NCBI GenBank assembly: GCA_018651085.1
Contig: JABIEQ010000014.1
Span: 15,178-79,177 of the forward strand
Length of the DNA: 64,000 nucleotides
Reading direction: 5' to 3'
From: Candidatus Magasanikiibacteriota bacterium
GTDB taxonomy: Bacteria; Patescibacteriota; Patescibacteriia; Magasanikbacterales; UBA922
Under the pieces are notes generated by a model that searched no databases, had not been told where the DNA came from, and worked only from the letters and a program-made list of their open reading frames with translations. Made by a program: the position numbers and the translations under genes. Positions 5,151-35,314 of the stretch are shown here, one piece after another. Numbering within the stretch: the stretch's first letter is position 1; every line of letters starts with the position of its first letter.

Positions 5151-6584
5151 ATGGAACTTAATGCACTTACAATCAAACAAGCCACTACAGGACTCCAAAA
5201 TAAGGAGTTTTCTTCAGTTGAATTGACATCTGCATGCATTAATCGCATTAAAAAGAGAAATAGTGACATTAATGCATTTATTAGTGTGACTGAAGATGAA
5301 GCGATGGACGCTGCAAAAAAAGCGGATGAAGCAATAAAAAATGGAAGTAGTAAAACCCTTACAGGTATCCCATTTGGAGTAAAGGACGCCATTTGTGTTA
5401 AAGACATCCGGTCAACTGGAGGCGCAAAAATTCTTGATACCTATACACCTCCACATACAGCAACCGTTATAGAAAAGATTTTATCTGAAGGTGCTGTTCT
5501 CGTTGGAAAGCAAAACTGCGATGCTTTTGGGCATGGAGCAAGTAATGAGAACTCCATGTATGGGCCAGTTAAAAATCCTCATGATACAACAAAGGTAGCC
5601 GGAGGTTCTTCAGGTGGCTCAGCTGCCGCACTTGCTGACAATCAATGCCTTTTTTCTATTGCAGAAGACACTGGTGGATCAATTCGTCAACCAGCGAGTC
5701 TTTGTGGTGTTGCGGGTCTTCGCCCAAGTTATGGGAGAAATTCGAGGTACGGGATCATGCCAATGGCAAGTTCTTTAGATACTGTGGGACCAATGGCAAA
5801 AACAATAGAGGATATTGCTATATTGATGGAAGTTATGGCCGGAAACGATAAAAAAGACGCCACAACGGTAAATCAAGAAGTGCCAATGTACACAAAAGAG
5901 ATAATAAAAGACATTTCAGGCATGAAAATTGGGGTTCCAAAAGAATACATGGAACTTGAAGGTATGGATGAAGAAGTGAAACATATCATTGAAAAACAAA
6001 TTGAAGCATTAAAAAAGATGGGATGTAAGATAGAGCCCATTTCTTTACCACATACAAAATATGCTGTTCCTGTGTATTACATTGTAGTTCCGAGTGAAGA
6101 CAGTTCAAACATGGGAAGACTTGATGCTATTAGATATGGGGTTCAAGAAAAAGGGGATTCTCTTTATGACGTATATGCAAACAGTAGACGTAATGGTTTT
6201 CCAGAAGAAGTAAAAAGACGGATCATGGTTGGAACATATGCCCTTTCAGCTGGATACTATGATGCGTATTATAAAAAAGCACAAAAAGTACGAACCCTTA
6301 TTAGACAAGATTTTGAGAATGCCTTTTCAAAGGTAGACCTTTTAGTAACACCAACGTCTCCTTTTCCTGCATTTGGTCTTGGTGAAAAAAAAGATGATAT
6401 TATTTCAATGTATTTAGCTGATGTGTTTGTAAGTCCAGGGGCAGTTGCTGGTATCCCAGGATTATCTGTTCCCGTTGGGAACACTAAAGCAAGACTTCCT
6501 GTGGGTCTTCAAGTAATGGGACCACGGTTAGCAGAAGGAAGAGTATTACAACTTGGGCACCATATTCAACAAGCACAATCATAA
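5151..6584 (+). CDS. gatA: Asp-tRNA(Asn)/Glu-tRNA(Gln) amidotransferase subunit A
   Basis: Amidase signature GGSSGGSAAALA and a Ser-cisSer-Lys region, 477 aa, adjacent to gatC. Confidence 0.9.
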   Translation: MELNALTIKQATTGLQNKEFSSVELTSACINRIKKRNSDINAFISVTEDEAMDAAKKADEAIKNGSSKTLTGIPFGVKDAICVKDIRSTGGAKILDTYTPPHTATVIEKILSEGAVLVGKQNCDAFGHGASNENSMYGPVKNPHDTTKVAGGSSGGSAAALADNQCLFSIAEDTGGSIRQPASLCGVAGLRPSYGRNSRYGIMPMASSLDTVGPMAKTIEDIAILMEVMAGNDKKDATTVNQEVPMYTKEIIKDISGMKIGVPKEYMELEGMDEEVKHIIEKQIEALKKMGCKIEPISLPHTKYAVPVYYIVVPSEDSSNMGRLDAIRYGVQEKGDSLYDVYANSRRNGFPEEVKRRIMVGTYALSAGYYDAYYKKAQKVRTLIRQDFENAFSKVDLLVTPTSPFPAFGLGEKKDDIISMYLADVFVSPGAVAGIPGLSVPVGNTKARLPVGLQVMGPRLAEGRVLQLGHHIQQAQS

Positions 6585-6591
6585 ACATACT

Positions 6592-7941
6592 ATGAAAAAA
6601 GACGACATTAAAAAAATGGAAGAACAAGCAATTCGGACATTTGGGTATACACTTAATGAAAATAAAGATTATAGAGAGCCATGGAGAATTTTTCGTATCA
6701 TGGCGGAGTTTGTAGAAGGGTATGAGTTTTTAACAAATTTAGAAAAAGAAGTAACCATTTTAGGATCAGCAAGGCTTCCAGAAGGAAGTAAATATTATGA
6801 ACTTGCAAGAGAACTCGGAGGAATACTCGCAAAAAACGGATTTACCACACTCACTGGTGGTGGGCCTGGAATTATGGAAGCAGGGAATAGGGGAGCCTTT
6901 GAAGCTGGTGGAAATTCAGTTGGATTAAATATTCAACTTCCTTTTGAACAAGTAATAAATCCTTACGTTAAAAAATCAACGTCATTTAATTACTTTTTTA
7001 CAAGAAAAGTAATGTTAACGTCCCCTGCACATGCGTTTGTCTATTTTCCAGGAGGATTTGGAACACTTGATGAGTTATTTGAAGTAGTAGATAACATAGA
7101 GCTTCGATTTATGGAGAGTGCGCCTATTATTCTTGTAGGAAAAGAATTTTGGGAACCAGTTATTGAGTTTCTTCTAGGCAGTTGTGGAAGTGTTGGGTCA
7201 GTACCAAAAGAAGAAGTGGAAAAATGGCACATCGTTGATACTGCTGAAGAAGCGTTTGAATTTATTAAGGATGTAAAAGAAGTGAAAACATGTTCACTTT
7301 CACCAACAAGTTTTCATTGTGAAAAAAATATTGATTGGAAAATTTTTAGAATCATGTCAGAACTAGTTGAAGGGTTTGAGTTTGTTACAGGAAAGACAAA
7401 TGCTGTGACAGTTCTTGGAACAAAAAGTATTACTCCTGATAATGAGTATTATGAAGCAGCGTATCGTGTAGGGAAAACACTCGCAGAACACAAATATGAT
7501 GTGTTAACTGGGGGGAAAACTGGTGTGGCAGAAGGGACAAATAAAGGAGCCTTTGAAGCAGGGGGAAATTCTGTTGGCATCGGTATGCGCGTTGCGGGGC
7601 ATGATATGGTAAATCCATATCTAAGTAGCTCAATTCTTTTCAATTTCCCATTTACAAGAAAGCTGATTATTACTGCGCCAACAAAAGCCTTCGTATTTTT
7701 TCCAGGAGGATTTGGAACACTCCATCAGTTATTTGAAATACTTACACTGATTCAAACAAAGAAAATGGAGAAAATTCCAATCATTCTTTTTAATCATAAG
7801 TTTTGGGAACCAATGCATAAGTTTATTAAAGAAACATTGGTGCATAAAATGAAGACTGTGGGGGATAAAGACGACGAATTATATCAAATTGTAGATAATG
7901 AAGAAAGTATTATAAGGGTAATAGAAGAATACTACGCATAA
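6592..7941 (+). CDS. tandem-duplicated LOG-family (TIGR00730, Rossmann-fold lysine-decarboxylase-like) protein
   Basis: Two consecutive copies of the LOG motifs: GGGPGIMEAGNRGAFEAGG...PGGFGTLDELFE and GGKTGVAEGTNKGAFEAGG...PGGFGTLHQLFE. Start set at the ATG just after the gatA stop. Confidence 0.7.
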   Translation: MKKDDIKKMEEQAIRTFGYTLNENKDYREPWRIFRIMAEFVEGYEFLTNLEKEVTILGSARLPEGSKYYELARELGGILAKNGFTTLTGGGPGIMEAGNRGAFEAGGNSVGLNIQLPFEQVINPYVKKSTSFNYFFTRKVMLTSPAHAFVYFPGGFGTLDELFEVVDNIELRFMESAPIILVGKEFWEPVIEFLLGSCGSVGSVPKEEVEKWHIVDTAEEAFEFIKDVKEVKTCSLSPTSFHCEKNIDWKIFRIMSELVEGFEFVTGKTNAVTVLGTKSITPDNEYYEAAYRVGKTLAEHKYDVLTGGKTGVAEGTNKGAFEAGGNSVGIGMRVAGHDMVNPYLSSSILFNFPFTRKLIITAPTKAFVFFPGGFGTLHQLFEILTLIQTKKMEKIPIILFNHKFWEPMHKFIKETLVHKMKTVGDKDDELYQIVDNEESIIRVIEEYYA

Positions 7942-7943
7942 AT

Positions 7944-8708
7944 ATGATTCCTTGGATTCACTACAACGTTATTAACATTGGCCCTCTACCTATTCAGGTA
8001 TGGGGGTTGTTTGTTGCTATAGGCCTTATTGTATCAGTAGCAATCATTACAAAACGTGCCCCAAAAATGGGACTACAAAAAGAACAAATCCTTGATATGG
8101 TTATTTGGGCTTTGTTTGGTGGATTTATTATGTCGAGAATATTTCACATTGCTTTATATGAACCAGGCTTTTATATTGCCAACCCTCTAGAAATGGTAAA
8201 AGTATGGCAAGGAGGATTATCTTCCTTTGGTGGTGTCGCAGGTGCAGCCTTGGGTATCCTTCTTTACGCAAAAAGAAAAGGAATAGTCATAAAAACATTA
8301 CTCCCAACGATAGATCTATTGAGTTTTTCAGCCCTTTTTGGATGGATCTTTGGGCGGATTGGATGCTTTTTAATTCATGATCATCCTGGAACGCTTTCTC
8401 ATAGCTTTCTTGCTGTGAAAAATCCAAATGGATCAAGGTTAGACATGGCATTTTTAGAAATATTGGCACTGTTGCCGTTAGTTGTATTTTTTATACTAAC
8501 AAGAAAGAAAAAATACCCAGAAGGATTCTATACAGCTATACTATTTATATACTACGGCATAACACGCATAGTATTAGATTTTTTTAGAGCAACTGATGTC
8601 TCTCATGCTGATGTACGCTATCTTGGATTGACGCCTGGGCAATACATTGCTATTGTCATGGTACTTTTTGGTATAGCAATATACATAAGAAAAGTACATA
8701 AAAAGTAG
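7944..8708 (+). CDS. lgt: prolipoprotein diacylglyceryl transferase
   Basis: Polytopic membrane protein with the Lgt-like N-terminus (IGPLPIQVWGLFVAIG) and a GRIGCFLIHDHPG motif, 254 aa. Confidence 0.7.
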   Translation: MIPWIHYNVINIGPLPIQVWGLFVAIGLIVSVAIITKRAPKMGLQKEQILDMVIWALFGGFIMSRIFHIALYEPGFYIANPLEMVKVWQGGLSSFGGVAGAALGILLYAKRKGIVIKTLLPTIDLLSFSALFGWIFGRIGCFLIHDHPGTLSHSFLAVKNPNGSRLDMAFLEILALLPLVVFFILTRKKKYPEGFYTAILFIYYGITRIVLDFFRATDVSHADVRYLGLTPGQYIAIVMVLFGIAIYIRKVHKK

Positions 8709-8798
8709 GGAAGGATGGCTGAGTGGTCGAAAGCGCTTGCTTGGAAAGCAAGTGTACGAGAAATCGTACCGTGGGTTCGAATCCCGCTCCTTCCGCCA
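8709..8798 (+). tRNA. tRNA-Ser (anticodon GGA), CCA encoded
   Basis: Cloverleaf readable: acceptor GGAAGGA/TCCTTCC, anticodon loop TTGGAAA, long variable arm, T-loop GGTTCGAATCC, 3' GCCA. Confidence 0.9.
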
Positions 8799-8807
8799 AT
8801 ATAGAAT

Positions 8808-9395
8808 ATGAATATCACTTTATACCAAATTATATTTGACTGGGGAGGAGTATTAGCTCCAGATGATTCTTTGCTTGCCGCAGAACACCTTTCAAAAAAG
8901 TACAAATGTGATTATGAAGAATTACGAAAAGTGCTCTGGGATGAAGAGGGCTTTTCTGAAGGAAAAAATGAAGAAGGATATTTTAAAAAAATACTAGAGA
9001 AATTTCCTATACCAAAAGAAGAGATTATAGAATGGAAAAACAAAGCGCTTCCAAATGACACCTTCACTTTTTGTCATAAGTTGAAAAAGAAAGGATATAC
9101 AGTACACCTTCTATCAGACCAGATGCAATGGAGAGCTGACTTTATAAGAAATAACTTTGATTTGCAATGTTTTGATCAAATAATGTTTTCTTCTGAAATT
9201 GGACATATAAAAAAAGAAAAGGAAGCATTTTTGTGTATGATAAATGCAGGAAGAATAGATCTTAAAAAAGCAGTATTTGTTGATGATTCTAAATGTAAAA
9301 TAGCCGTAGCAAAAGAAGTTGGGTTAGATGCTATTTTGTATATAAATCTACCTGATTTGAAAAAACAATTACATAAAAGAGGGATTACTATATAA
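8808..9395 (+). CDS. HAD-superfamily hydrolase-like protein
   Basis: Motif I-like FDWGGVL at the N-terminus and a VFVDDS motif near the C-terminus. The second Asp of DxD is replaced, so the call is tentative. Confidence 0.45.
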   Translation: MNITLYQIIFDWGGVLAPDDSLLAAEHLSKKYKCDYEELRKVLWDEEGFSEGKNEEGYFKKILEKFPIPKEEIIEWKNKALPNDTFTFCHKLKKKGYTVHLLSDQMQWRADFIRNNFDLQCFDQIMFSSEIGHIKKEKEAFLCMINAGRIDLKKAVFVDDSKCKIAVAKEVGLDAILYINLPDLKKQLHKRGITI

Positions 9396-9499
9396 GGTGA
9401 TTCTTTTTTAAATATAAGATATTTTGTATACTAAGGGAGTCTTTAATTATGTACAAGAAAATAAATAAAATATAGAGTTTAATAAATTATTTTATCCAT

Positions 9500-10216
9500 A
9501 TGAAAAATAAAGTAAGCATTATCCTTGGAATGTGTGCTATCACATTATTTGTAGGGGTTGGTTGTAATTGGCATTTTGAGGTAGGAAAAGATCTAAACCA
9601 AGAAGAAAATGATGAAGAAATTGTAGAGAGCCTGAAAGAAGAACCTCAAGCCATAGAAGAAAACATAGTAATACCAGAAAATGAAGTAATAAAAGAAATA
9701 ATACAAGAAGCTGTTAAAGAAGAAAATGTAGAAATCAAAAATGCAGTATGTAAAACATTAGATTGTTTTATGGAATTGGCAAACGATTGTAAAAAAGGGG
9801 AAGTTACTCATTATTATAGCGTGCCATTTTTACTAGGTGATGGGGTAAATATGACAGGTATAAATAGATACGTACTTCATGGGAGAGATAAAAACAAACA
9901 ATGTACCTTTACACAGCAATCACAAGGTTCTGAAGCTAAAATTTCAATAGAAGGTAGAGAAAAGGCTTTAGCCGAAGGATTCACAAACGAAGAAGTTGAT
10001 GCTCAAATAGAAGCCATAAATGGAGCATTAAATGATCCGGCTCTTTTAGAGAGTATTATGACATGTAGAGGAGCAGAAAAAGACATCATTACTTACTTAC
10101 AAAATACACAACAAGGGATTGGGAAAACCTCTTGTTCATTTGATTTTGGAAAAGACGAAACAGTATGTATTGTAGAACCTAATTTATCGTGTATTACAAA
10201 GATAACAACAAAATAG
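9500..10216 (+). CDS. Cys-rich putative lipoprotein, hypothetical
   Basis: Signal peptide with lipobox-like FVGVGC, an acidic low-complexity linker and several Cys residues. Confidence 0.5.
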   Translation: MKNKVSIILGMCAITLFVGVGCNWHFEVGKDLNQEENDEEIVESLKEEPQAIEENIVIPENEVIKEIIQEAVKEENVEIKNAVCKTLDCFMELANDCKKGEVTHYYSVPFLLGDGVNMTGINRYVLHGRDKNKQCTFTQQSQGSEAKISIEGREKALAEGFTNEEVDAQIEAINGALNDPALLESIMTCRGAEKDIITYLQNTQQGIGKTSCSFDFGKDETVCIVEPNLSCITKITTK

Positions 10217-10241
10217 AAGGTGGACTCTAACAGTAAGAAAC

Positions 10242-10547
10242 ATGAAGTATAATAAGCTTGTACGAGATAATATTCCAGAAATTATTAAAGCAAATGGGGA
10301 GGCTTCAATGATTCACATCGCAGGAGAAACAGAATATAAAGAAAAACTCATTGAAAAACTACAAGAAGAAGTAGATGAATTTATAAAAGATAACTCAAAA
10401 GAAGAGCTTGCTGACATTCTTGAAGTTATTTATGCCTTAGGAGATCTGTATGAGATTAAAAAAGAAGAACTTGAAAAAATACGACAGATTAAAGCAGAAA
10501 AAAGAGGAACATTCACAAAAAGAATCATTTTAGAAGAAACAACATAA
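10242..10547 (+). CDS. MazG-like nucleoside triphosphate pyrophosphohydrolase (small all-alpha NTP-PPase)
   Basis: N-terminus KLVRDNIPEII and EExxE/D acidic helices typical of ~100-aa MazG/HisE-like pyrophosphohydrolases. Confidence 0.55.
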   Translation: MKYNKLVRDNIPEIIKANGEASMIHIAGETEYKEKLIEKLQEEVDEFIKDNSKEELADILEVIYALGDLYEIKKEELEKIRQIKAEKRGTFTKRIILEETT

Positions 10548-10566
10548 GTATTAAAAAGAGTAAAGT

Positions 10567-11376
10567 ATGAAAAAAACGATACTTATCACCGGGGCATCAA
10601 CTGGTATTGGAAAAGAAGTGGCCTTATATTTTGCTAAAAAAGGTTGGCATGTTGCGGCAACCATGAGAAGTCCAGAAAAACATTCTTTTAAACATACAAC
10701 AATTAAAAAATACAAACTAGATGTTACAGACCAACATTCTATAAAAGATACAATACAAAAAGTAATTCAGGAATTAGGTTCTATTGATGTTATTGTAAAC
10801 AATGCTGGTTACGGAGCACTTGGTATTTTCGAAAAAGCAACGACAGAACAAATTCAAAAACAATTTGAAGTAAACGTTTTTGGGGTCATGAATGTGATTC
10901 GTCATACATTACCACATTTCAAAAAGAAAAAAGCAGGTCTTATTATAAACATTTCTTCAATGGCTGGATTATTAGGTATACCAATGTACAGTGTATATCA
11001 TGGATCTAAATGGGCACTTGAAGGATTTACTGAATCATTACAATTTGAACTACAACCATTTAATATACAGGTTAAAAACGTAGAACCCGGAGCAATTAAA
11101 ACAGACTTTTATACACGTTCTCAAGAAGTATTCACCAATGAGAGTATTAAAGGGTATGATACCTATGAAGCAATAATTAAAGGTGTGATAAAAAAAACAG
11201 GAGAAACTGCCCCAGGACCAAAAACGGTAGCAGAAGTAGTATATAAAGCCGCAACTGATGGAAAAAATCGTTTGCGGTACCCCGTAGGAAAAAAAATCTG
11301 GTCGCTATTACTTGCAAAAAAATTATTGCCAAATCGAGTATTCTTTTTTATAGTGAAACAAATGATGAGGAGATGA
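10567..11376 (+). CDS. short-chain dehydrogenase/reductase (SDR)
   Basis: TGASTGIG Rossmann motif, NNAG, and the catalytic YxxxK (YHGSK). Confidence 0.85.
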   Translation: MKKTILITGASTGIGKEVALYFAKKGWHVAATMRSPEKHSFKHTTIKKYKLDVTDQHSIKDTIQKVIQELGSIDVIVNNAGYGALGIFEKATTEQIQKQFEVNVFGVMNVIRHTLPHFKKKKAGLIINISSMAGLLGIPMYSVYHGSKWALEGFTESLQFELQPFNIQVKNVEPGAIKTDFYTRSQEVFTNESIKGYDTYEAIIKGVIKKTGETAPGPKTVAEVVYKAATDGKNRLRYPVGKKIWSLLLAKKLLPNRVFFFIVKQMMRR

Positions 11377-11540
11377 AAGACGTAAAAAACGTCGTGAAAT
11401 GGATACAAAAAAATCATCACAAGATACTTTAAAGAAAAAGGATGCTCTGTTGTTTTTATAACTTTATGGTATACTTATCCCATTAGTATAAAATTAATCA
11501 TTCTCTAAAGAACCCTCTTTAGCTTTTTAAATACACCTAT

Positions 11541-14384
11541 ATGGCATATATGAGAAGACATCTCCTCGCATTTATTATCATGGCAGTGGTTATTGGGGCC
11601 GCTAGTATTTCTGCATTAGCAGTAAATGCACAAATAGACATATTAAGTAATATTAACAATGCACAAAGTTGTACAGAAATAGAAGGACAAAGCCCTGTCA
11701 TTGATCCATTTACAGGAGAAGCCGAATGTCGATGTGAGTCCGGCCATGAAGTCAATGAAAAAGGGACAAAATGTGTCAAAGTTGAGATTACAACATGTCC
11801 AAGTGGAGAAGAAAAGAACATATTTGGAGAATGTATTCCAATTGTAGAACAAGATCCTGAACCAACTAGTTGTGAAAATAAAACATATAATCAAGGGGTG
11901 TACGACAATGTATATGATCTAGATGGGGACTGTCATATGTCAGAAGGGCCAGAGAATCTTCCAACAGGATATCCAATTGATTGTGATGATTCACTTCCTG
12001 ATGGAGCAGATAGATTTGAAAACTGTGAAGAAGTTGTAGAAACTTCTGAATGTCCAGAAGGACAAGAAATAAACCCAAACGGTGCTTGTGTACCTGTAAT
12101 TCAGGAAACACAAGGATGCCCAGAAGGGGAAGAGTTAAATCCTAATGGGGCATGTGTTCCTGTCGTAACAGAAGAAGATTGTGGAACAGAGCTATATAAC
12201 GTCGGGATCTATAACAATGTATATGATCTAGACGGGGATTGTCATATGTCAGAAGGCCCAGAGAATCTTCCAACAGGATATCCAATTGATTGTGATGATT
12301 CACTTCCTGATGGAGCAGATAGATTTGAAAACTGTGAAGAAGAAACAACTGACGAATGTCCAGATGGAACACATCTTGGCGTAACTGGGCCAAACGATAA
12401 AACACCAGCGTGTGTGCCGGACGAAGAAGGATGTGAAGAAGGTTTTGTTGTTGTTCCAGGGTATTCACCAAATGGATTACCAATAACAACATGTATTGAA
12501 GAAGAAGTAGGGTGTCCAGATGGAACACATCTTGGTGTAACTGGACCAAACGATAAAACACCAGCATGTGTACCAAACGTAGAACTAAGTGGGGAAGAAT
12601 GTGCTGAAGGAGAAGTATTACTACTTGCGTATGACGAAAATGGTGTTCCGGTAACGCAGTGTGTCACACAATGTGAAATAGGAACGACGCTACAACAAAC
12701 ACAAGTGGCTGGTGACACCGTATACACCTGTGTAGAGGTAGATACTGCATGTACGCCAGGACAAGTAACACAATTTTCTCAAACATCTATTACCCATGCA
12801 CTTCTTGAAGAATGTACAAATAGAGAAGACGTTTGTACAGGTTCAGGTGAAGTAGCAGAGTATAGTGTGACTGGATTATTCTTAGGATGTAATACCGGAT
12901 GCCCAGATGGACAAATTGTAATTAGTTATACAACAGACGATGGATTGAGTTATGAAGAGTGTGCAAATCCATCAGAAGATGATGTTTGCGATCCAAATGA
13001 ACATCCTGGGTTTCAAAGCACATCAATTATTGTGAACCAAACAACAGGAGAAGGACGTTGTTTAGAAGAAGATGAAGATATCTGCGAAGAAGGACAAGTT
13101 ATTGGGTACACATTTTCAGGATTACCAACATGTGTAGATCAATGTGCTGACGGAGAAATTATCTATGAGTGGACTGGAAAAGACGGTGAAGTGTATCAAG
13201 AATGTTATAGTCCAGAAGAAAATAACGACGAAGGCTATGACGATGTTTGTGAAGAAGATCAAGTACTGACTATTCAAAGTACAAATGTAGAAAATCATCA
13301 AATCATTGCAGAATGCTTAGATGAAGATCTTATTTGTGAAGAAGGACAAGAAGTCATTTATGATGGATCTGGTCTTGCAAGTTGTGCTGATAGGTGTGAA
13401 AACGGAGAAGTACCAATATTAGGATACGATCCAAATGGTCTACCAACAAGCATTTGTGTAGAAGAAAATGAAGACATTTGTGAAGATGGAGAAATATTAG
13501 GATATGATGCCAACGGTCTTCCTTTAGGTGATGGTGAATGTGTAGAGGAAGAAGAAGTATGTGCAGACGGAGAAATATTAGTACACACTACAACTGGCTA
13601 TGGAGTCTGCCAAGAAGAAGAAGTTGGTTGTCCAGCGGGATACGTGGCTTTCTATGATGGTTCAGGAGCACTCTTTTGTGAAGTACCAGAAGCAGGATGT
13701 GTAGACGGACAAGTATCAGCTCCGGTACAAACAATTGTTATCCAACAAGCAAATACTAGTTACGAAGAAACAATTTATAGTTGTTATGAACCAGAAGATG
13801 CCTGTACAGATAGTGAAAGTGGAGCATTATTTAGCCAAGCAGCAACAACTGGACTTGGTGGATGTCAAGAAAACTGTCCAGCAGGGCAATTGCTCGTAGA
13901 AGCACAAAGTGCGACAGGTGAACCGTACCTAACTTGCGAAAGTCCAATTGAACCGGCATTTTTCCAACAATACAGTGGAGAAGGGAATACTGATGACGAT
14001 GAAGAAAATCAAGATGGACAGGTGTTTGTGGCAATATCATCTGGATCAGGAGCAGATGCTGACGAAACAGTATACGTAAAGAAAAACAAAGAAGAGGCTT
14101 GCCCTGCAGGAACAAGCTTGTTACTAGATCAATCAAATAGAGCAAGTTGTGTAAGAGAATGTCCAGTGGATCACATTAGAACAGAAAGACGATTACGTGG
14201 AACAAAGTTCCAAGAGTGTGTACCACTCACAAGCCTTACAGAAAGAGAACAACGCCAAGCACTAAGAAGTACAAATGCAAATGATAAACGAGTATATGTA
14301 CTTGTCGGAATTGCAATAGTACTTGTAGCATTGCTAGTCGGATTATTCACTCAAGCAAAAAAGAAAGAAGAAATCGGACAATAA
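11541..14384 (+). CDS. large secreted/surface Cys-rich acidic repeat protein with a C-terminal transmembrane anchor
   Basis: Signal peptide, about 947 aa, dozens of CP(D/E)G...C repeats, internal near-identical nucleotide duplications, and a C-terminal hydrophobic helix VYVLVGIAIVLVALLVGLF followed by a KKKEE tail. Confidence 0.7.
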   Translation: MAYMRRHLLAFIIMAVVIGAASISALAVNAQIDILSNINNAQSCTEIEGQSPVIDPFTGEAECRCESGHEVNEKGTKCVKVEITTCPSGEEKNIFGECIPIVEQDPEPTSCENKTYNQGVYDNVYDLDGDCHMSEGPENLPTGYPIDCDDSLPDGADRFENCEEVVETSECPEGQEINPNGACVPVIQETQGCPEGEELNPNGACVPVVTEEDCGTELYNVGIYNNVYDLDGDCHMSEGPENLPTGYPIDCDDSLPDGADRFENCEEETTDECPDGTHLGVTGPNDKTPACVPDEEGCEEGFVVVPGYSPNGLPITTCIEEEVGCPDGTHLGVTGPNDKTPACVPNVELSGEECAEGEVLLLAYDENGVPVTQCVTQCEIGTTLQQTQVAGDTVYTCVEVDTACTPGQVTQFSQTSITHALLEECTNREDVCTGSGEVAEYSVTGLFLGCNTGCPDGQIVISYTTDDGLSYEECANPSEDDVCDPNEHPGFQSTSIIVNQTTGEGRCLEEDEDICEEGQVIGYTFSGLPTCVDQCADGEIIYEWTGKDGEVYQECYSPEENNDEGYDDVCEEDQVLTIQSTNVENHQIIAECLDEDLICEEGQEVIYDGSGLASCADRCENGEVPILGYDPNGLPTSICVEENEDICEDGEILGYDANGLPLGDGECVEEEEVCADGEILVHTTTGYGVCQEEEVGCPAGYVAFYDGSGALFCEVPEAGCVDGQVSAPVQTIVIQQANTSYEETIYSCYEPEDACTDSESGALFSQAATTGLGGCQENCPAGQLLVEAQSATGEPYLTCESPIEPAFFQQYSGEGNTDDDEENQDGQVFVAISSGSGADADETVYVKKNKEEACPAGTSLLLDQSNRASCVRECPVDHIRTERRLRGTKFQECVPLTSLTEREQRQALRSTNANDKRVYVLVGIAIVLVALLVGLFTQAKKKEEIGQ

Positions 14385-14392
14385 GACAATAA

Positions 14393-14432
14393 AAAAAGAA
14401 CCCCATTAACGGGGTTCTTTTTTTGACCATGG
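14393..14432. terminator. bidirectional rho-independent terminator
   Basis: The sequence aaaaaaagaaccccattaacggggttcttttttt is a perfect hairpin flanked by an A-run and a T-run. Confidence 0.7.
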
Positions 14433-14489
14433 TATTTCCTCATGGGTATGGTATACTAATTACTATCATTTTTTTAAGAAAAGATTCAT

Positions 14490-15938
14490 ATGAAAAAAGA
14501 TATTATAGTAATACTATCTGGGATATGTATTTTGATTATAATAGGAGTCTCTATTTTTCTGGTACACGAAAAAAGAGAAAACACACAAGGTGATTCGTTA
14601 GTAGAACAGATAGATAATGCCACTTCAATACATGAAGAAAATAACGTGAAAAGAAAATTTAGAGAGTTCAACATAGATCTTTCGATGCATTCTATTGATC
14701 TTAATGCTATTCTCGACGGAGGACCGGGGAAAGATGGCATTCCAGCACTTACAAATCCAAAAACTGTATCGCTTGATGATGTTGATACAAAGGAAGATAT
14801 TCTTGGTATTTTGGTAGAAATAAATGATGAGAAAAAATATTATCCATACAATGTGCTAGTATGGCATGAAATTATTAATGATACTTTAGGTGGAAAAGAA
14901 ATAGCCGTAACATTCTGTCCATTATGTGGATCAGCAATTGTATTTGATAGGGACGTAGAAGGAGAAATACTTGATTTTGGTGTAAGTGGTAAATTGTTTG
15001 AGTCAAATCTACTTATGTATGATACACAAACAGATTCTCTATGGTCTCAAGCAAAGGGAGAAGCTGTAGTAGGAGAAAAGACAGACACAAAGCTTACACG
15101 TATTCCATTTCAACTATTATCGTTTAAACAAATTCGTGAAAAAGAGGAAAACCTTGATGTTGTAAGTACAGACACAGGGTTTAAAAGAGACTATAGTGTG
15201 TACCCATATGGTGATTACGAAGAAAATGACAGTATGGTATTTCCTGTAAGCGTCAATGATAAAAGATATTTTGCAAAAGAAATAATGTATGTATTTTCTC
15301 TAAAAGATACATCAATAAGTTTCCCCGTTAATACGATAGAAAACGGCCTCTTTTCTTTTACAATAGAGGATAAAGAGATATACATTAAAAAAGATGGTGG
15401 AGAAATTTTTATTACAGATAATGGATCTGTCATACCCGGATATTACGAAATGTGGTTTTCTTGGGCAACGCACCATCAATTAGATGGCATAGTTTTGCCT
15501 AATCATGAATTTACACAAGGACATAATGAAGAAGAGAAAGAAACTGAGAAAAATAAAGAAACCACCTATAGTGGGGAAGTACTTGCAGGAAAAACGGCAT
15601 TAGTTATTGATTTTAATCAAGAAGATTACAACAAAGCAAAAGAAGAAGAAAAAAACATCATGCTCTATTTTTATGCAACCTGGTGCCCTCTTTGTAAGGA
15701 AGAGTTGAAAGATCTATATGCGGCATTTAACGATATAGAAAAAGAAAATATAATTGCATTTAGAGTGAATTATAAAGATGGAGAAACACAAAAGGAAGAA
15801 AAACAGTTAGCAAAAGAATTCGGTGTGGCATATCAACACACCAAGATTTTCATAAAAGATGGAGAAAGAATACACAAAACACCCGAAACCTGGAATAAAG
15901 TACAATATGAAGAAGAAGTAATACGTATTTTTAATTAA
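14490..15938 (+). CDS. membrane-anchored DUF3179-like domain fused to a C-terminal thioredoxin-like domain
   Basis: N-terminal TM helix. A central CPLCG-containing domain resembling DUF3179. A C-terminal thioredoxin fold with WCPLC (ATWCPLCKEE). Confidence 0.55.
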   Translation: MKKDIIVILSGICILIIIGVSIFLVHEKRENTQGDSLVEQIDNATSIHEENNVKRKFREFNIDLSMHSIDLNAILDGGPGKDGIPALTNPKTVSLDDVDTKEDILGILVEINDEKKYYPYNVLVWHEIINDTLGGKEIAVTFCPLCGSAIVFDRDVEGEILDFGVSGKLFESNLLMYDTQTDSLWSQAKGEAVVGEKTDTKLTRIPFQLLSFKQIREKEENLDVVSTDTGFKRDYSVYPYGDYEENDSMVFPVSVNDKRYFAKEIMYVFSLKDTSISFPVNTIENGLFSFTIEDKEIYIKKDGGEIFITDNGSVIPGYYEMWFSWATHHQLDGIVLPNHEFTQGHNEEEKETEKNKETTYSGEVLAGKTALVIDFNQEDYNKAKEEEKNIMLYFYATWCPLCKEELKDLYAAFNDIEKENIIAFRVNYKDGETQKEEKQLAKEFGVAYQHTKIFIKDGERIHKTPETWNKVQYEEEVIRIFN

Positions 15939-15943
15939 CATAT

Positions 15944-16654
15944 ATGGGAGATATATCAATCATCTTTGCTTTTTTAGGGGGAGTCGTATCCTTTCTTTCT
16001 CCATGTGTATTACCAATAATCCCTGGTTTTTTAGCATATCTCGCTGGGTCATCATTAGAAAATCCAAGTAGAGAAGAGCGAAGAGAAATGTTTATAAATA
16101 GTCTTTTCTTCGTATTAGGGTTTTCTCTTATATTTGCCATCCTTGGAGTCCTTTTAAATACTGTGCTAGAAGCAATTGCGTATGATGTACAAAACTGGTT
16201 AGCACGCATTGGAGGAATCATTATTATATTTTTTGGGATCTATCTTACCGGAATTATTAAAGTACCTTTTTTAGAAAAAGAGCATAAGGTACTTATTAAA
16301 AGAAAATTTAAATCAAAATATCTAACCTCATTTATATTTGGCCTTGCATTTGCCGTGGGTTGGACTCCTTGTGTAGGAGCAGCACTCGGAGCAATTTTAG
16401 GACTTGCCGCATCTCAACCAGGAGCAGCATTTATATTATTATTTGCATATTCTTTAGGGCTTGGGTTACCATTTATTATTACCGCAATATTTGCGGCGGG
16501 AGCAACAAAACTCATAAAAAAGGTAGGCCCTTGGCTTAAATACGTTATGATTATCTTTGGAATTATCCTTATCATCTTAGGAGTACTGGTATTTACCCAA
16601 TTACTGAGTCGTGTTGCGGATTTTAGTATACTTACCATGCTTTTATCTCGATAA
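15944..16654 (+). CDS. ccdA: cytochrome c biogenesis / thiol-disulfide electron transfer protein CcdA (DsbD family)
   Basis: Conserved Cys-containing TM motifs LSPCVLPIIPG and GWTPCVGAALGAIL, six predicted TM helices. Confidence 0.8.
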   Translation: MGDISIIFAFLGGVVSFLSPCVLPIIPGFLAYLAGSSLENPSREERREMFINSLFFVLGFSLIFAILGVLLNTVLEAIAYDVQNWLARIGGIIIIFFGIYLTGIIKVPFLEKEHKVLIKRKFKSKYLTSFIFGLAFAVGWTPCVGAALGAILGLAASQPGAAFILLFAYSLGLGLPFIITAIFAAGATKLIKKVGPWLKYVMIIFGIILIILGVLVFTQLLSRVADFSILTMLLSR

Positions 16655-16710: not shown

Positions 16711-17427
16711 ATGGAGTTTGGACACTCACTCGTCATCATTGCTGTACTTACATTAAGTTTATTACGATACAAAACAGGGAGCCTTTGTCTTGCCTGTACA
16801 AAGCATGGAAATAAAATCATGTCTTTTATCATTGGGGCGGCAATCATGCTTATCTTTTTGCATCTTCTCAGTGTCGTTTATTTTGAAATTGGTTCCCTTC
16901 ATCCCTTTCTTATTTTATTACTCCCAATAGGATTTTGTACGTTTTTGTTTATCGAGCAACACGTGCAACATCACAAGAGAAAAGATATACAAACAGAAGA
17001 AGCACGAACAGTGCATCTAGTGCTTTCAGCAATAACGGGTATATTAGTAGGATTTGCACTTATTCAAAATACACAAAGTAGTTTAGTAGATGGAATACTC
17101 CTTATTTTCGTCTTTGTGTTATATGATCTTATTGATACGATAACGTTACATTCGTTGCATCATAGAAAAGAAGTTGTTTCAATGAAGCATAAGCTAAGAC
17201 GTGTATTGTTTAGTCTTGCTCCAGTATACGGATACGTCATTGGTCTGTTAATTAATATCCCACGAGTCATTCACTTTGGTATTGTGGCATTTCTTACCGG
17301 AATTATCTTACATGCTATCTTTAGAGAGATTATTCCAGAAGAAAAACGTATCCTCCCATTATACTTCAGTATAGGTGTACTATTTTTTGTAGGGTTATTT
17401 TTCCTTGATGCTTTTCTTGTTTCATAA
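16711..17427 (+). CDS. polytopic membrane protein, possibly a ZIP-family metal transporter
   Basis: Multiple TM helices, a His-rich loop HVQHHKRKD, and a HAIFREIIPEE segment reminiscent of the ZIP HxxxE...PE motif. The assignment is weak. Confidence 0.35.
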   Translation: MEFGHSLVIIAVLTLSLLRYKTGSLCLACTKHGNKIMSFIIGAAIMLIFLHLLSVVYFEIGSLHPFLILLLPIGFCTFLFIEQHVQHHKRKDIQTEEARTVHLVLSAITGILVGFALIQNTQSSLVDGILLIFVFVLYDLIDTITLHSLHHRKEVVSMKHKLRRVLFSLAPVYGYVIGLLINIPRVIHFGIVAFLTGIILHAIFREIIPEEKRILPLYFSIGVLFFVGLFFLDAFLVS

Positions 17428-19402: not shown

Positions 19403-20074
19403 ATGACAGAATTAATTAGTACAAGAGATATTAAAAATCTCAAAGAAAAACTACCTACGGATAGGCATGATTTTTATACTTCACAATTTAAAAAAATAGA
19501 TGAAGGTGGAAAAGCCGACAGAGCTGTTGATGTTGTAGCTCTACTTTTGTTTACATCAGATGGACATATCATTTTACAAAAAAGATCTCATACAAAAAGA
19601 CATAACCCTTACTTAATAGATAAATCAGTGGGTGGACATATTAAATACGGAGACACCCCACTATATACTCTGATGGTAGAAACTGTACAAGAGTTACAAG
19701 TGCCTTCAATTGTTCTTCGTACCTATAATGATTTTATAAAAACATATACGCTTTTACACACCTATTTAGATAGCATAGCCATTGTGAAAGAACTTGATAG
19801 AAAAGTATATGCCATGAATAGAGTCGTTGATGGAAAAAAATACCAAATGCTAAATAACGCTTACGTATATATAGGAGTATACGGAGGAGCTACTAAACCG
19901 GTAGACCAAGAAGCTAGTGGTATACTTTTTTATGATCTAGATGTATTAAAAAAAGAGATGGAAAAAAAACCCGAATCATTTACCTATGATTTGAGGTTCT
20001 ATCTAGAAAAATATCAATACGAGATACAAACATTTCTCAACTATCTTTCTCAACCACAATTACTCACAAAATAA
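19403..20074 (+). CDS. Nudix-fold protein with a degenerate Nudix box, hypothetical
   Basis: Nudix-like beta strand VDVVALLLFTSDGHIILQKRS and a degenerate box GGHIKYGDTPLYTLMVETVQEL. Confidence 0.35.
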   Translation: MTELISTRDIKNLKEKLPTDRHDFYTSQFKKIDEGGKADRAVDVVALLLFTSDGHIILQKRSHTKRHNPYLIDKSVGGHIKYGDTPLYTLMVETVQELQVPSIVLRTYNDFIKTYTLLHTYLDSIAIVKELDRKVYAMNRVVDGKKYQMLNNAYVYIGVYGGATKPVDQEASGILFYDLDVLKKEMEKKPESFTYDLRFYLEKYQYEIQTFLNYLSQPQLLTK

Positions 20075-34809: not shown

Positions 34810-35204
34810 TCGGCGGTAGCTCAGTGGTAGAGCAGTTGGCTGTAAAAATACTTGTATGGATGTATCCATATGAACGACTAGCAGCTCTTTGTAGGAATAC
34901 AAAGATGAATAACAAGGTGAATTGCTGGAAACCCTAACAGGAGGAGCTGAGGGTAATCAGCAGCCAAGTCTGTTTTTTCCGTATCGTTTAGTATACATTC
35001 GTGTACTGACATCGGTTACAGAAAGGTTCAGAGACTATCCCTTTTGGGAGTACTGCATAACAGTTGTTATGTGGGAAGCGCCTTGCACCCCACCGTCTTA
35101 GCATGACTAAGTATTACGAGGGTGATGATATAGTCCACACTTTAGTGAAAAACTAGAGATAATGTGTAACCAATTGGTCGCCAGTTCGAATCTGGCCCGC
35201 CGAG
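34810..35204 (+). tRNA. tRNA (most likely Asn-GUU, alternatively Thr-UGU) interrupted in the anticodon loop by a group I intron
   Basis: The 5' half TCGGCGG-TA-GCTCAGTGGTAGAGC-A-GTTGG-CTGT is followed by a ~323-nt insertion, then TAA-CCAAT-TGGTC-GCCAGTTCGAATCTGGC-CCGCCGA-G. The acceptor and T arms pair perfectly. The reconstituted loop CUGUUAA equals the canonical tRNA-Asn loop. Confidence 0.8.
34844..35166 (+). other. group I self-splicing intron (no ORF) within the tRNA anticodon loop
   Basis: Canonical R element GTTCAGAGACTA (35028-35039) and S element GATATAGTCC (35127-35136) forming P7. The 5' exon ends in U. The intron ends in G. A candidate internal guide sequence GCAGCU (about 34881-34886) pairs with the exon end GGCUGU to form P1. 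The exact splice boundaries are inferred. Confidence 0.75.
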
Positions 35205-35314
35205 CAACGATGTTAGAACCATTAAAATCCGTTATATTTAGCGGATTTTTTGGAAAGTGAAATAATGTAGTATATCTAGACAAATAGGCTTTTTTTTGTT
35301 AGGATCAAGTATCT

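Follow-up and report, generated by a model that had tools for sequence, protein, structure and literature searches.

A 64,000-nucleotide (nt) stretch of contig JABIEQ010000014.1 from a Candidatus Magasanikiibacteriota genome (hereafter, the window) contains an open reading frame (ORF) at 11541-14384 (+) that encodes a cysteine-rich, acidic protein of 947 amino acids (aa). We conclude that this is probably a lineage-specific, membrane-anchored surface protein whose modular array arose by in-frame duplications, with sub-modules that were re-homogenised and have been held by purifying selection since. Its repeat anatomy, selection pattern, topology signals, taxon, and orphan status are matters of direct observation. 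The protein matches, with 100% identity, the hypothetical protein MBT7754891.1 from a Candidatus Magasanikbacteria metagenome-assembled genome (MAG), in agreement with the Candidate Phyla Radiation (CPR) origin proposed in an initial annotation that used the sequence alone. Contigs with the gene come from several marine metagenome assemblies, including Joint Genome Institute (JGI) assembly 3300000216, where their names are labelled SI53jan11_150m. The ectodomain comprises ~29 Cys-bounded hairpin segments and two copies of a ~54-aa module with the motif YDxDGDC.

Divergence mosaic of the internal repeats

A 127-nt segment at 11907-12033, which forms the core of the YDxDGDC module, is found again at 12216-12342, altered at three sites (11924 T/C, 11930 C/T, and 11948 G/C; pair 1). 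All three fall in third codon positions and are synonymous, so both copies encode the same 42-aa peptide, NVYDLDGDCHMSEGPENLPTGYPIDCDDSLPDGADRFENCEE. Within the pair, 85 nt form a perfectly identical stretch. Here the coordinates and codon positions confirm the initial annotation, which had also described a 64-nt pair (12357-12420 and 12513-12576; pair 2) as synonymous-only. This holds over 63 nt, or 21 codons, but the last base (12420/12576) is a first-position change that exchanges D for N, so that five of the six differences are synonymous; these five are G or C in copy A and A or T in copy B. Across both pairs, eight of nine differences are third-position and synonymous, and none of those in pair 1 involves A. 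Random substitutions in these tracts would be synonymous in 20-26% of cases, and eight synonymous changes out of eight have p ~1e-5. The synonymous-only differences show that the plus frame of 11541-14384 is the one translated. Two antisense ORFs (12142-12576 and 12242-12727) were treated as by-products of composition because third-position-only differences fit the plus frame.

Self-blastn within the window returned E = 3.6e-60 for pair 1 and 1e-22 for pair 2, placing the repeats far beyond chance, and found no copy of either outside the gene. The repeats are nested: start to start, a module with two hairpins spans 309 nt, a unit of two hairpins spans 156 nt, and the two CPEG hairpins are offset by 66 nt. 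The 309-nt period equals 103 codons and preserves the frame. At 127 nt with an exact run of 85 nt, the in-frame, near-identical repeats of pair 1 are long enough for homologous recombination.

Divergence is distributed as a mosaic. In the module core dN is 0 and dS is 0.13, and the same codon is used at 38 of 41 positions against 22.8 expected from the codon usage of the gene (p = 5e-8; here and below, codons were counted at identical residues). The 12 codons just upstream, in the same module (CENKTYNQGVYD versus CGTELYNVGIYN), have dN 0.49 and dS ~1.5, and share codons at the chance level. The CPDGTHLG... hairpin of pair 2 has dN 0 and dS 0.39, with the same codon at 16 of 21 positions against 11.0 expected (p = 0.02), and the second hairpin of the same 156-nt unit has dN 0.52, dS ~1.6, and chance codon sharing. 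The two CPEG hairpins, in which 14 of 16 residues are identical, have dN 0.056 with saturated dS and share 4 of 14 codons against 8.0 expected. In the flanks dN/dS is ~0.3 with saturated dS, and there is no sign of positive selection. In all three pairs dN/dS is far below 1, which argues that the particular sequences of the modules are under strong purifying selection. By these measures the nucleotide ancestry of the module core is much more recent than that of the rest of its unit. The juxtaposition of young cores and old flanks points to gene conversion, or to a second, shorter copying event, superimposed on an old duplication, rather than to one recent tandem duplication. This bears out the initial annotation, which had invoked recent duplication or conversion within the gene together with purifying selection.

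The most likely history is that the array grew through successive in-frame duplications at spacings of 66, 156, and 309 nt. Two sub-modules would later have been re-homogenised by gene conversion or a second, shorter copying event, and only synonymous changes would have accumulated since then because the exact amino-acid sequence is under strong purifying selection. Alternatively, each whole unit could have arisen by one recent tandem duplication without conversion, its flanks diversifying fast around frozen cores. Such a history would place identical cores next to strongly diverged segments (dN ~0.5) with boundaries near module borders, as seen here. We consider it improbable, since diversifying selection would leave dS unraised, whereas the synonymous sites of the flanks are saturated (dS ~1.5-1.6, same codons at chance) against dS of 0.13 and 0.39 in the cores, and flank dN/dS, at ~0.3, does not exceed 1.

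Could the two copies instead belong to a diversity-generating retroelement (DGR), one as its template repeat and the other as its variable repeat? DGRs are common in CPR bacteria, the gene encodes a surface protein of such a bacterium, and copy B of pair 2 has A in place of the G of copy A at five positions. Yet no RVT family is found among the precomputed Pfam matches of all called genes (window ~1.5-64 kb), and no ORF in the first 1.5 kb exceeds 151 aa. Both copies lie inside one ORF with no third copy in the window, and the mismatches are third-position and synonymous at eight of nine sites, with none at A in pair 1. Given that a reverse transcriptase, a template repeat, and adenine-specific mismatches are all lacking here, we regard a DGR as excluded for the 64-kb window, strengthening the initial view that one was unlikely.

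Repeat-unit copy number across assemblies

The gene is base-for-base identical in six independent assemblies, including the three sites that tell the copies of pair 1 apart. The contig names of these assemblies are of SPAdes-style NODE, MEGAHIT-style k141, and JGI types, and their mismatches to the window number 0-3 each, all near contig ends. This agreement indicates that the two copies are genuine. The 90%-identity cluster of the protein also includes a 944-aa call that starts at a later ATG, a 947-aa D863G allele, and an 844-aa protein. The last is encoded on contig L007 of assembly ERZ4200978 (coverage 4.3x), which is without exactly 309 nt, or one unit, in frame. It keeps all three copy-A variants and then continues with the sequence that follows copy B, which places the junction inside the 85-nt identical stretch. 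L007 also departs from the window at two internal sites, by a synonymous GGT>GGC at 7524 and by T>G in the D-loop of a tRNA-Ser at 8727; these are unlike the end mismatches of the other assemblies and hint at a distinct strain. The short form occurs in 1 of ~17-23 contigs; beyond the six assemblies compared base by base, additional contigs have two units, and no three-copy form was seen. Scans of the JGI metagenome collection with exact 44-mer and 23-mer patterns taken from the repeats gave no match; the organism is apparently not in that collection.

The initial annotation had named collapse or variation of the repeats in read data as the mark of an assembly artefact, and judged by this the other assemblies give a mixed picture. 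The single contig with one unit fewer is what favours a spurious duplication in one assembly, against an identical two-copy gene, with three fixed synonymous differences, in six assemblies from three pipelines and the same protein in NCBI MAG records; we hold an artefact to be highly improbable. The short form itself is either a real deletion allele, to which we assign an appreciable but less than even chance, or the collapse of a low-coverage assembly. Low-coverage de Bruijn assembly may skip the loop between two exact repeats; an exact repeat of 85 nt is expected to exceed the k-mers usually used.

The 85-nt identical stretch would be a substrate for homologous recombination, and loss or gain of one 103-aa unit would stay in frame. 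The 309-nt unit could accordingly act as a length switch, with 947- and 844-aa isoforms coexisting through RecA-type recombination. Such a switch is compatible with our preferred explanation and would amount to simple size variation of a surface protein. That L007 codes for a protein shorter by exactly one unit, with a crossover in the identical stretch and two internal single-nucleotide polymorphisms (SNPs) absent from the six other assemblies, speaks for it. The case nevertheless hangs on one contig of ~17-23, at 4.3x coverage from a de Bruijn assembler where a collapsed loop is plausible, and no three-copy form accompanies it; we therefore rate the switch as possible and rather unlikely. 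In either case, an 85-nt exact repeat can cause loss of a unit in short-read assemblies, so differences in the length of this protein between MAGs should not be trusted as such.

Topology, architecture, and genomic surroundings

The protein contains 62 Cys (6.5%), 13% Glu, and 7% Asp, with an isoelectric point of 4.05 and a net charge of about -158 (about -160 for the ectodomain). A 19-residue hydropathy scan picked out two hydrophobic segments and no more, one at ~aa 5-30 and the other at ~aa 914-941, and all 62 Cys lie between them. These segments match the signal peptide and C-terminal membrane anchor of the initial annotation. The N-terminal segment ends in AVNA/Q, which we take to be a typical signal-peptidase I site on the -3/-1 rule, and the C-terminal transmembrane (TM) helix is directly followed by a short tail, QAKKKEEIGQ. 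A motif check of the protein found neither an LPXTG (LPxT[GAS]) motif nor a lipobox within the signal peptide region. A signal peptide and one C-terminal TM helix argue for type I topology with an ectodomain of ~890 aa, and they support a location at the cell surface. After removal of the signal peptide, the ectodomain would be held by the single C-terminal helix as a chain of ~29 short Cys-bounded segments, with the YDxDGDC copies near its N-terminal, distal end (Table 1).

Table 1. Features of the Cys-rich gene and its flanks, in window coordinates
Feature	Coordinates	Strand	Remarks
Promoter-like extended -10 element, TATGGTATACT (TG 11467-11468, TATACT 11470-11475)	11465..11475	+	66 nt upstream of ATG; read from sequence, putative function
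Coding sequence, Cys-rich acidic type I membrane protein	11541..14384	+	944-aa call starts from an alternative ATG at 11550
Signal peptide, aa 1-30, probable cleavage after AVNA	11541..11630	+	Hydropathy peak ~aa 5-30
YDxDGDC module copy A, aa 111-164	11871..12032	+	High-identity core 11907-12033
Two CPEGxExNPNGACVPV hairpins, 66-nt period	12051..12164	+	Old duplicate; amino acids kept, codons scrambled
YDxDGDC module copy B, aa 214-267	12180..12341	+	High-identity core 12216-12342
CPDGTHLGVTGPNDKTPACVP hairpin copy A, aa 273-293	12357..12419	+	First of two-hairpin unit; 156-nt start-to-start spacing
CPDGTHLGVTGPNDKTPACVP hairpin copy B, aa 325-345	12513..12575	+	
Four ~77-aa six-Cys three-hairpin super-repeats and single hairpins	12747..13952	+	Cys spacing, alignment
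Cys-free acidic spacer, 54 aa, aa 800-853	13938..14099	+	
C-terminal TM helix, aa 917-937	14289..14351	+	Hydropathy peak ~aa 914-941
Strong palindromic hairpin with A-run and T-run	14391..14424	.	Intrinsic-terminator-like on both strands; 7 nt after stop

Consecutive Cys nearly always enclose 12-28 residues, frequently starting with CxxG and carrying a D/N-G turn inside, with acidic linkers of 4-9 residues between one enclosed segment and the next. With 22 CxxG motifs, nine of them CPxG, within ~29 Cys-bounded loops, the "dozens of CPxG...C modules" of the initial annotation were overstated. The super-repeats cover aa 403-479, 482-560, 569-644, and 719-804, and two more hairpins lie between the Cys-free spacer and the membrane anchor. 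The YDxDGDC module is rich in Asp, with DLDGDC and DCDDSLPDGA stretches. An AlphaFold2 (AF2) model of one super-repeat, with seven internal copies as the alignment, was weak (predicted local distance difference test score, pLDDT, 59), with beta-hairpins in hairpins 2 and 3 of the three Cys-bounded segments (pLDDT 64-77). The AF2 model of the YDxDGDC module (5-row alignment) had pLDDT 46 and was discarded as unusable. Foldseek found no match in the PDB at E <= 0.001. The Cys-bounded segments are probably disulfide-closed beta-hairpins.

The window is ordinary core chromosome, with genes for NAD-dependent DNA ligase, GatC/GatA, Lgt, FtsW, MurG, a P-type ATPase, MreB/MreC, PBP2, and several aminoacyl-tRNA synthetases. 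The Cys-rich gene, which lies between a short-chain dehydrogenase gene and the DUF3179-thioredoxin gene described below, looks monocistronic, with a promoter-like site of its own and a strong terminator. The 64-kb window has just two copies of the 11-mer TATGGTATACT (0.01 expected), at 11465-11475 and at 14447-14457, the latter upstream of the next gene; the shorter TGGTATACT is also present at 19918 and 29561. The two TATGGTATACT upstream regions show no wider similarity, and the 11-mer is probably a generic extended -10 promoter element.

The next gene (14490-15938, +) encodes a membrane-anchored DUF3179-thioredoxin fusion with FCPLCGS and WCPLC motifs, and is followed by a CcdA/DsbD_TM gene (15944-16654, +). 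A dedicated disulfide-isomerase link between this pair and the 62-Cys protein was considered and rejected because the adjacency is not conserved: among the 35 best-matching of 80 DUF3179 loci fetched from other genomes, secreted Cys-rich neighbours were found at only ~3. DUF3179 has at least 3290 matches and is recurrently fused to CcdA or thioredoxin, independently of the 947-aa protein, and the separate terminator and the promoter-like site of the next gene also argue against a functional link. The adjacency is probably fortuitous and a dedicated role a weak possibility, although the redox pair may service the disulfides of this protein as it would those of any exported Cys-rich client. DUF3179 itself, which is listed as a selenoprotein family with UxxC/T forms (PMC9312934), seems to serve an extracytoplasmic thiol-redox relay as its client or partner domain. 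One of the few loci with a secreted Cys-rich family beside a DUF3179-thioredoxin gene is on Candidatus Spechtbacteria contig VXOY01000022.1, where five tandem paralogues (5255-12119; 426-491 aa, 20-21 Cys, and an N-terminal hydrophobic segment each) lie 1-6.6 kb from that gene.

Three further features of the window were recorded. An acidic 238-aa protein (9500-10216, +) with 10 Cys, no Pfam match, and a lipoprotein-signal-like N-terminus ending in FVGVGC appears to be another exported Cys-containing protein, encoded 1.3 kb upstream of the 947-aa gene. Directly after the CcdA gene, 16711-17427 (+) encodes a multi-pass membrane protein, also of 238 aa and without a Pfam match, whose His-rich motifs HVQHHKRK and HSLHHRKE suggest that it may be a metal transporter. 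At 34810-35205 (+), a 323-nt group I intron interrupts the anticodon loop of a tRNA-Asn(GTT); Rfam model RF00028 matches it at full length over 34870-35158 (68 bits). A default tRNA scan overlooks this gene; ARAGORN with introns allowed found it, and both exon halves are readable.

Relatives, known systems, and possible role

Searches of Pfam, NCBIfam, and PHROGs with the whole protein and with isolated modules gave nothing at threshold, and the 947-aa protein matched no PDB sequence. For EGF or cEGF (PF12662) there was no match to the whole protein at E <= 1, and the best sub-threshold Pfam match of an isolated hairpin pair was TIL, whose 17 bits fall short of the 24.5 cut-off. A word-indexed search returned the protein itself and two weak matches. 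Exhaustive HMMER against 1.84e9 cluster representatives gave nine matches at E <= 1e-3: the protein, a fragment of it, and seven weak ones confined to aa 64-219. The weak relatives P0002, P0003, P0011, and P0013 (P0003 found by the word-indexed search) are CPxGxxxxxxGxC hairpin arrays with partial cEGF, TIL, or CBM_14 matches. Another, P0010 (313 aa, E = 2.2e-5), contains three copies of the very C-x4-[FY]N-x3-Y[DN]-x2-YDxDGDC module that occurs twice in the 947-aa protein. Neither copy of the YDxDGDC module in the 947-aa protein has a Pfam match even at E <= 10, P0010 matches PF11617 very weakly (E = 7.7), and a profile built from the five module copies found no further members. The genomic context of P0010 and P0002 was uninformative. 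By these searches, the protein is a lineage-specific orphan made of generic Cys-hairpins and a very rare module.

Large, very Cys-rich extracellular proteins with a signal peptide and without annotation have been described in Peribacteria, also CPR, where they are reported to be strain-variable and a role in rigidity or attachment was proposed (PMC4736985). The 947-aa protein resembles them in its CPR host, large size, signal peptide, Cys content of about 6.5-7%, and want of functional annotation (PMC4736985); with its CPR genome, size, signal peptide, and 6.5% Cys it falls within this descriptive class of CPR Cys-rich proteins. It differs in being the product of a single gene rather than a multi-gene cluster and in being nearly invariant between samples, and it has no detectable homology to any other family, other members of the class included. 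Its long tandem arrays of short C-x2-G-x(8-16)-C segments recall the hairpin repeats of EGF-like/cEGF (PF12662) and TIL domains. The protein is below every Pfam threshold, however, and unlike EGF it has a Cys spacing of 16-28 residues, linkers of 4-9, and a six-Cys super-repeat of ~77 aa. The disulfides of a six-Cys EGF domain join 1-3, 2-4, and 5-6; at pLDDT 46 and 59, the two AF2 models are too weak to show connectivity. The Asp-rich DLDGDC and DCDDSLPDGA of the YDxDGDC module resemble the MopE-type putative metal-binding motif (PF11617) and thrombospondin type-3/DxDxDG calcium-binding loops, a lead from motif reading in a module without a Pfam match at E <= 10.

Tandem-repeat surface proteins such as Rib/alpha C and SasG/Aap are built on near-identical DNA repeats and change copy number by recombination. 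The Cys-rich gene shares with them in-frame, near-identical DNA repeats, and the one contig without exactly one unit is a putative case of copy-number change, given that assembly collapse at 4.3x coverage would look the same. In contrast to these proteins, it has only two copies per recent repeat, embedded in an old, diverged array; its modules are Cys-rich hairpins, not Ig-like or G5 domains, and its anchor is a TM helix, not LPXTG. The variant-specific surface proteins of Giardia and the immobilisation antigens of ciliates belong to eukaryotic multigene families that carry CXXC motifs and undergo antigenic switching. They share type I topology with the 947-aa protein: a Cys-rich ectodomain of short periodic Cys motifs is followed by a single C-terminal TM helix and a cytoplasmic tail that is very short. 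The 947-aa protein, by contrast, is encoded by one bacterial gene, has CxxG...C spacing, and has no paralogue in the window.

Several points weigh against the explanation that we prefer. The flank dS estimates rest on 12-21 codons and are noisy, the shared-codon excess of pair 2 is marginal, and this pair may be an older duplicate under purifying selection for which conversion is not required. No Pfam, NCBIfam, PHROGs, or PDB family includes the protein, whose function is read solely from composition and topology. The disulfides are predicted, the two AF2 models are weak, and no fold matches. There is almost no variation between samples, with one non-synonymous SNP, and such near-invariance is a poor fit with a fast-evolving host-interaction protein in an arms race.

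The probable surface protein may serve as a rigid acidic stalk or a binding fibre. Among specific roles, binding of cations or of a partner cell would be the most likely, a proposal we make tentatively; host attachment, suggested in the initial annotation, is pure speculation. It is doubtful, though conceivable, that YDxDGDC is an undescribed, rare extracellular binding domain (perhaps for Ca2+ or another metal) and the functional tip of a fibre, with tip number (one or two) tuned by recombination of the 127-nt repeat and 844- and 947-aa forms coexisting in a Saanich-Inlet-type population. The module was seen in only two proteins among ~15 billion.

In-frame near-identical repeats, local gene conversion, and possible loss of a unit are familiar in many bacterial surface proteins. 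The pattern described here is thus ordinary among surface proteins built from repeats and does not amount to a new mechanism; the protein itself is a new orphan. If it is truly the outermost surface fibre of this uncultured CPR bacterium, its strictly conserved modules would be the obvious candidates for binding a partner cell, a mineral, or cations, and candidates of this kind are hard to come by in organisms without genetics. Beyond that, an old modular array shaped by local gene conversion and purifying selection is well known among such proteins.

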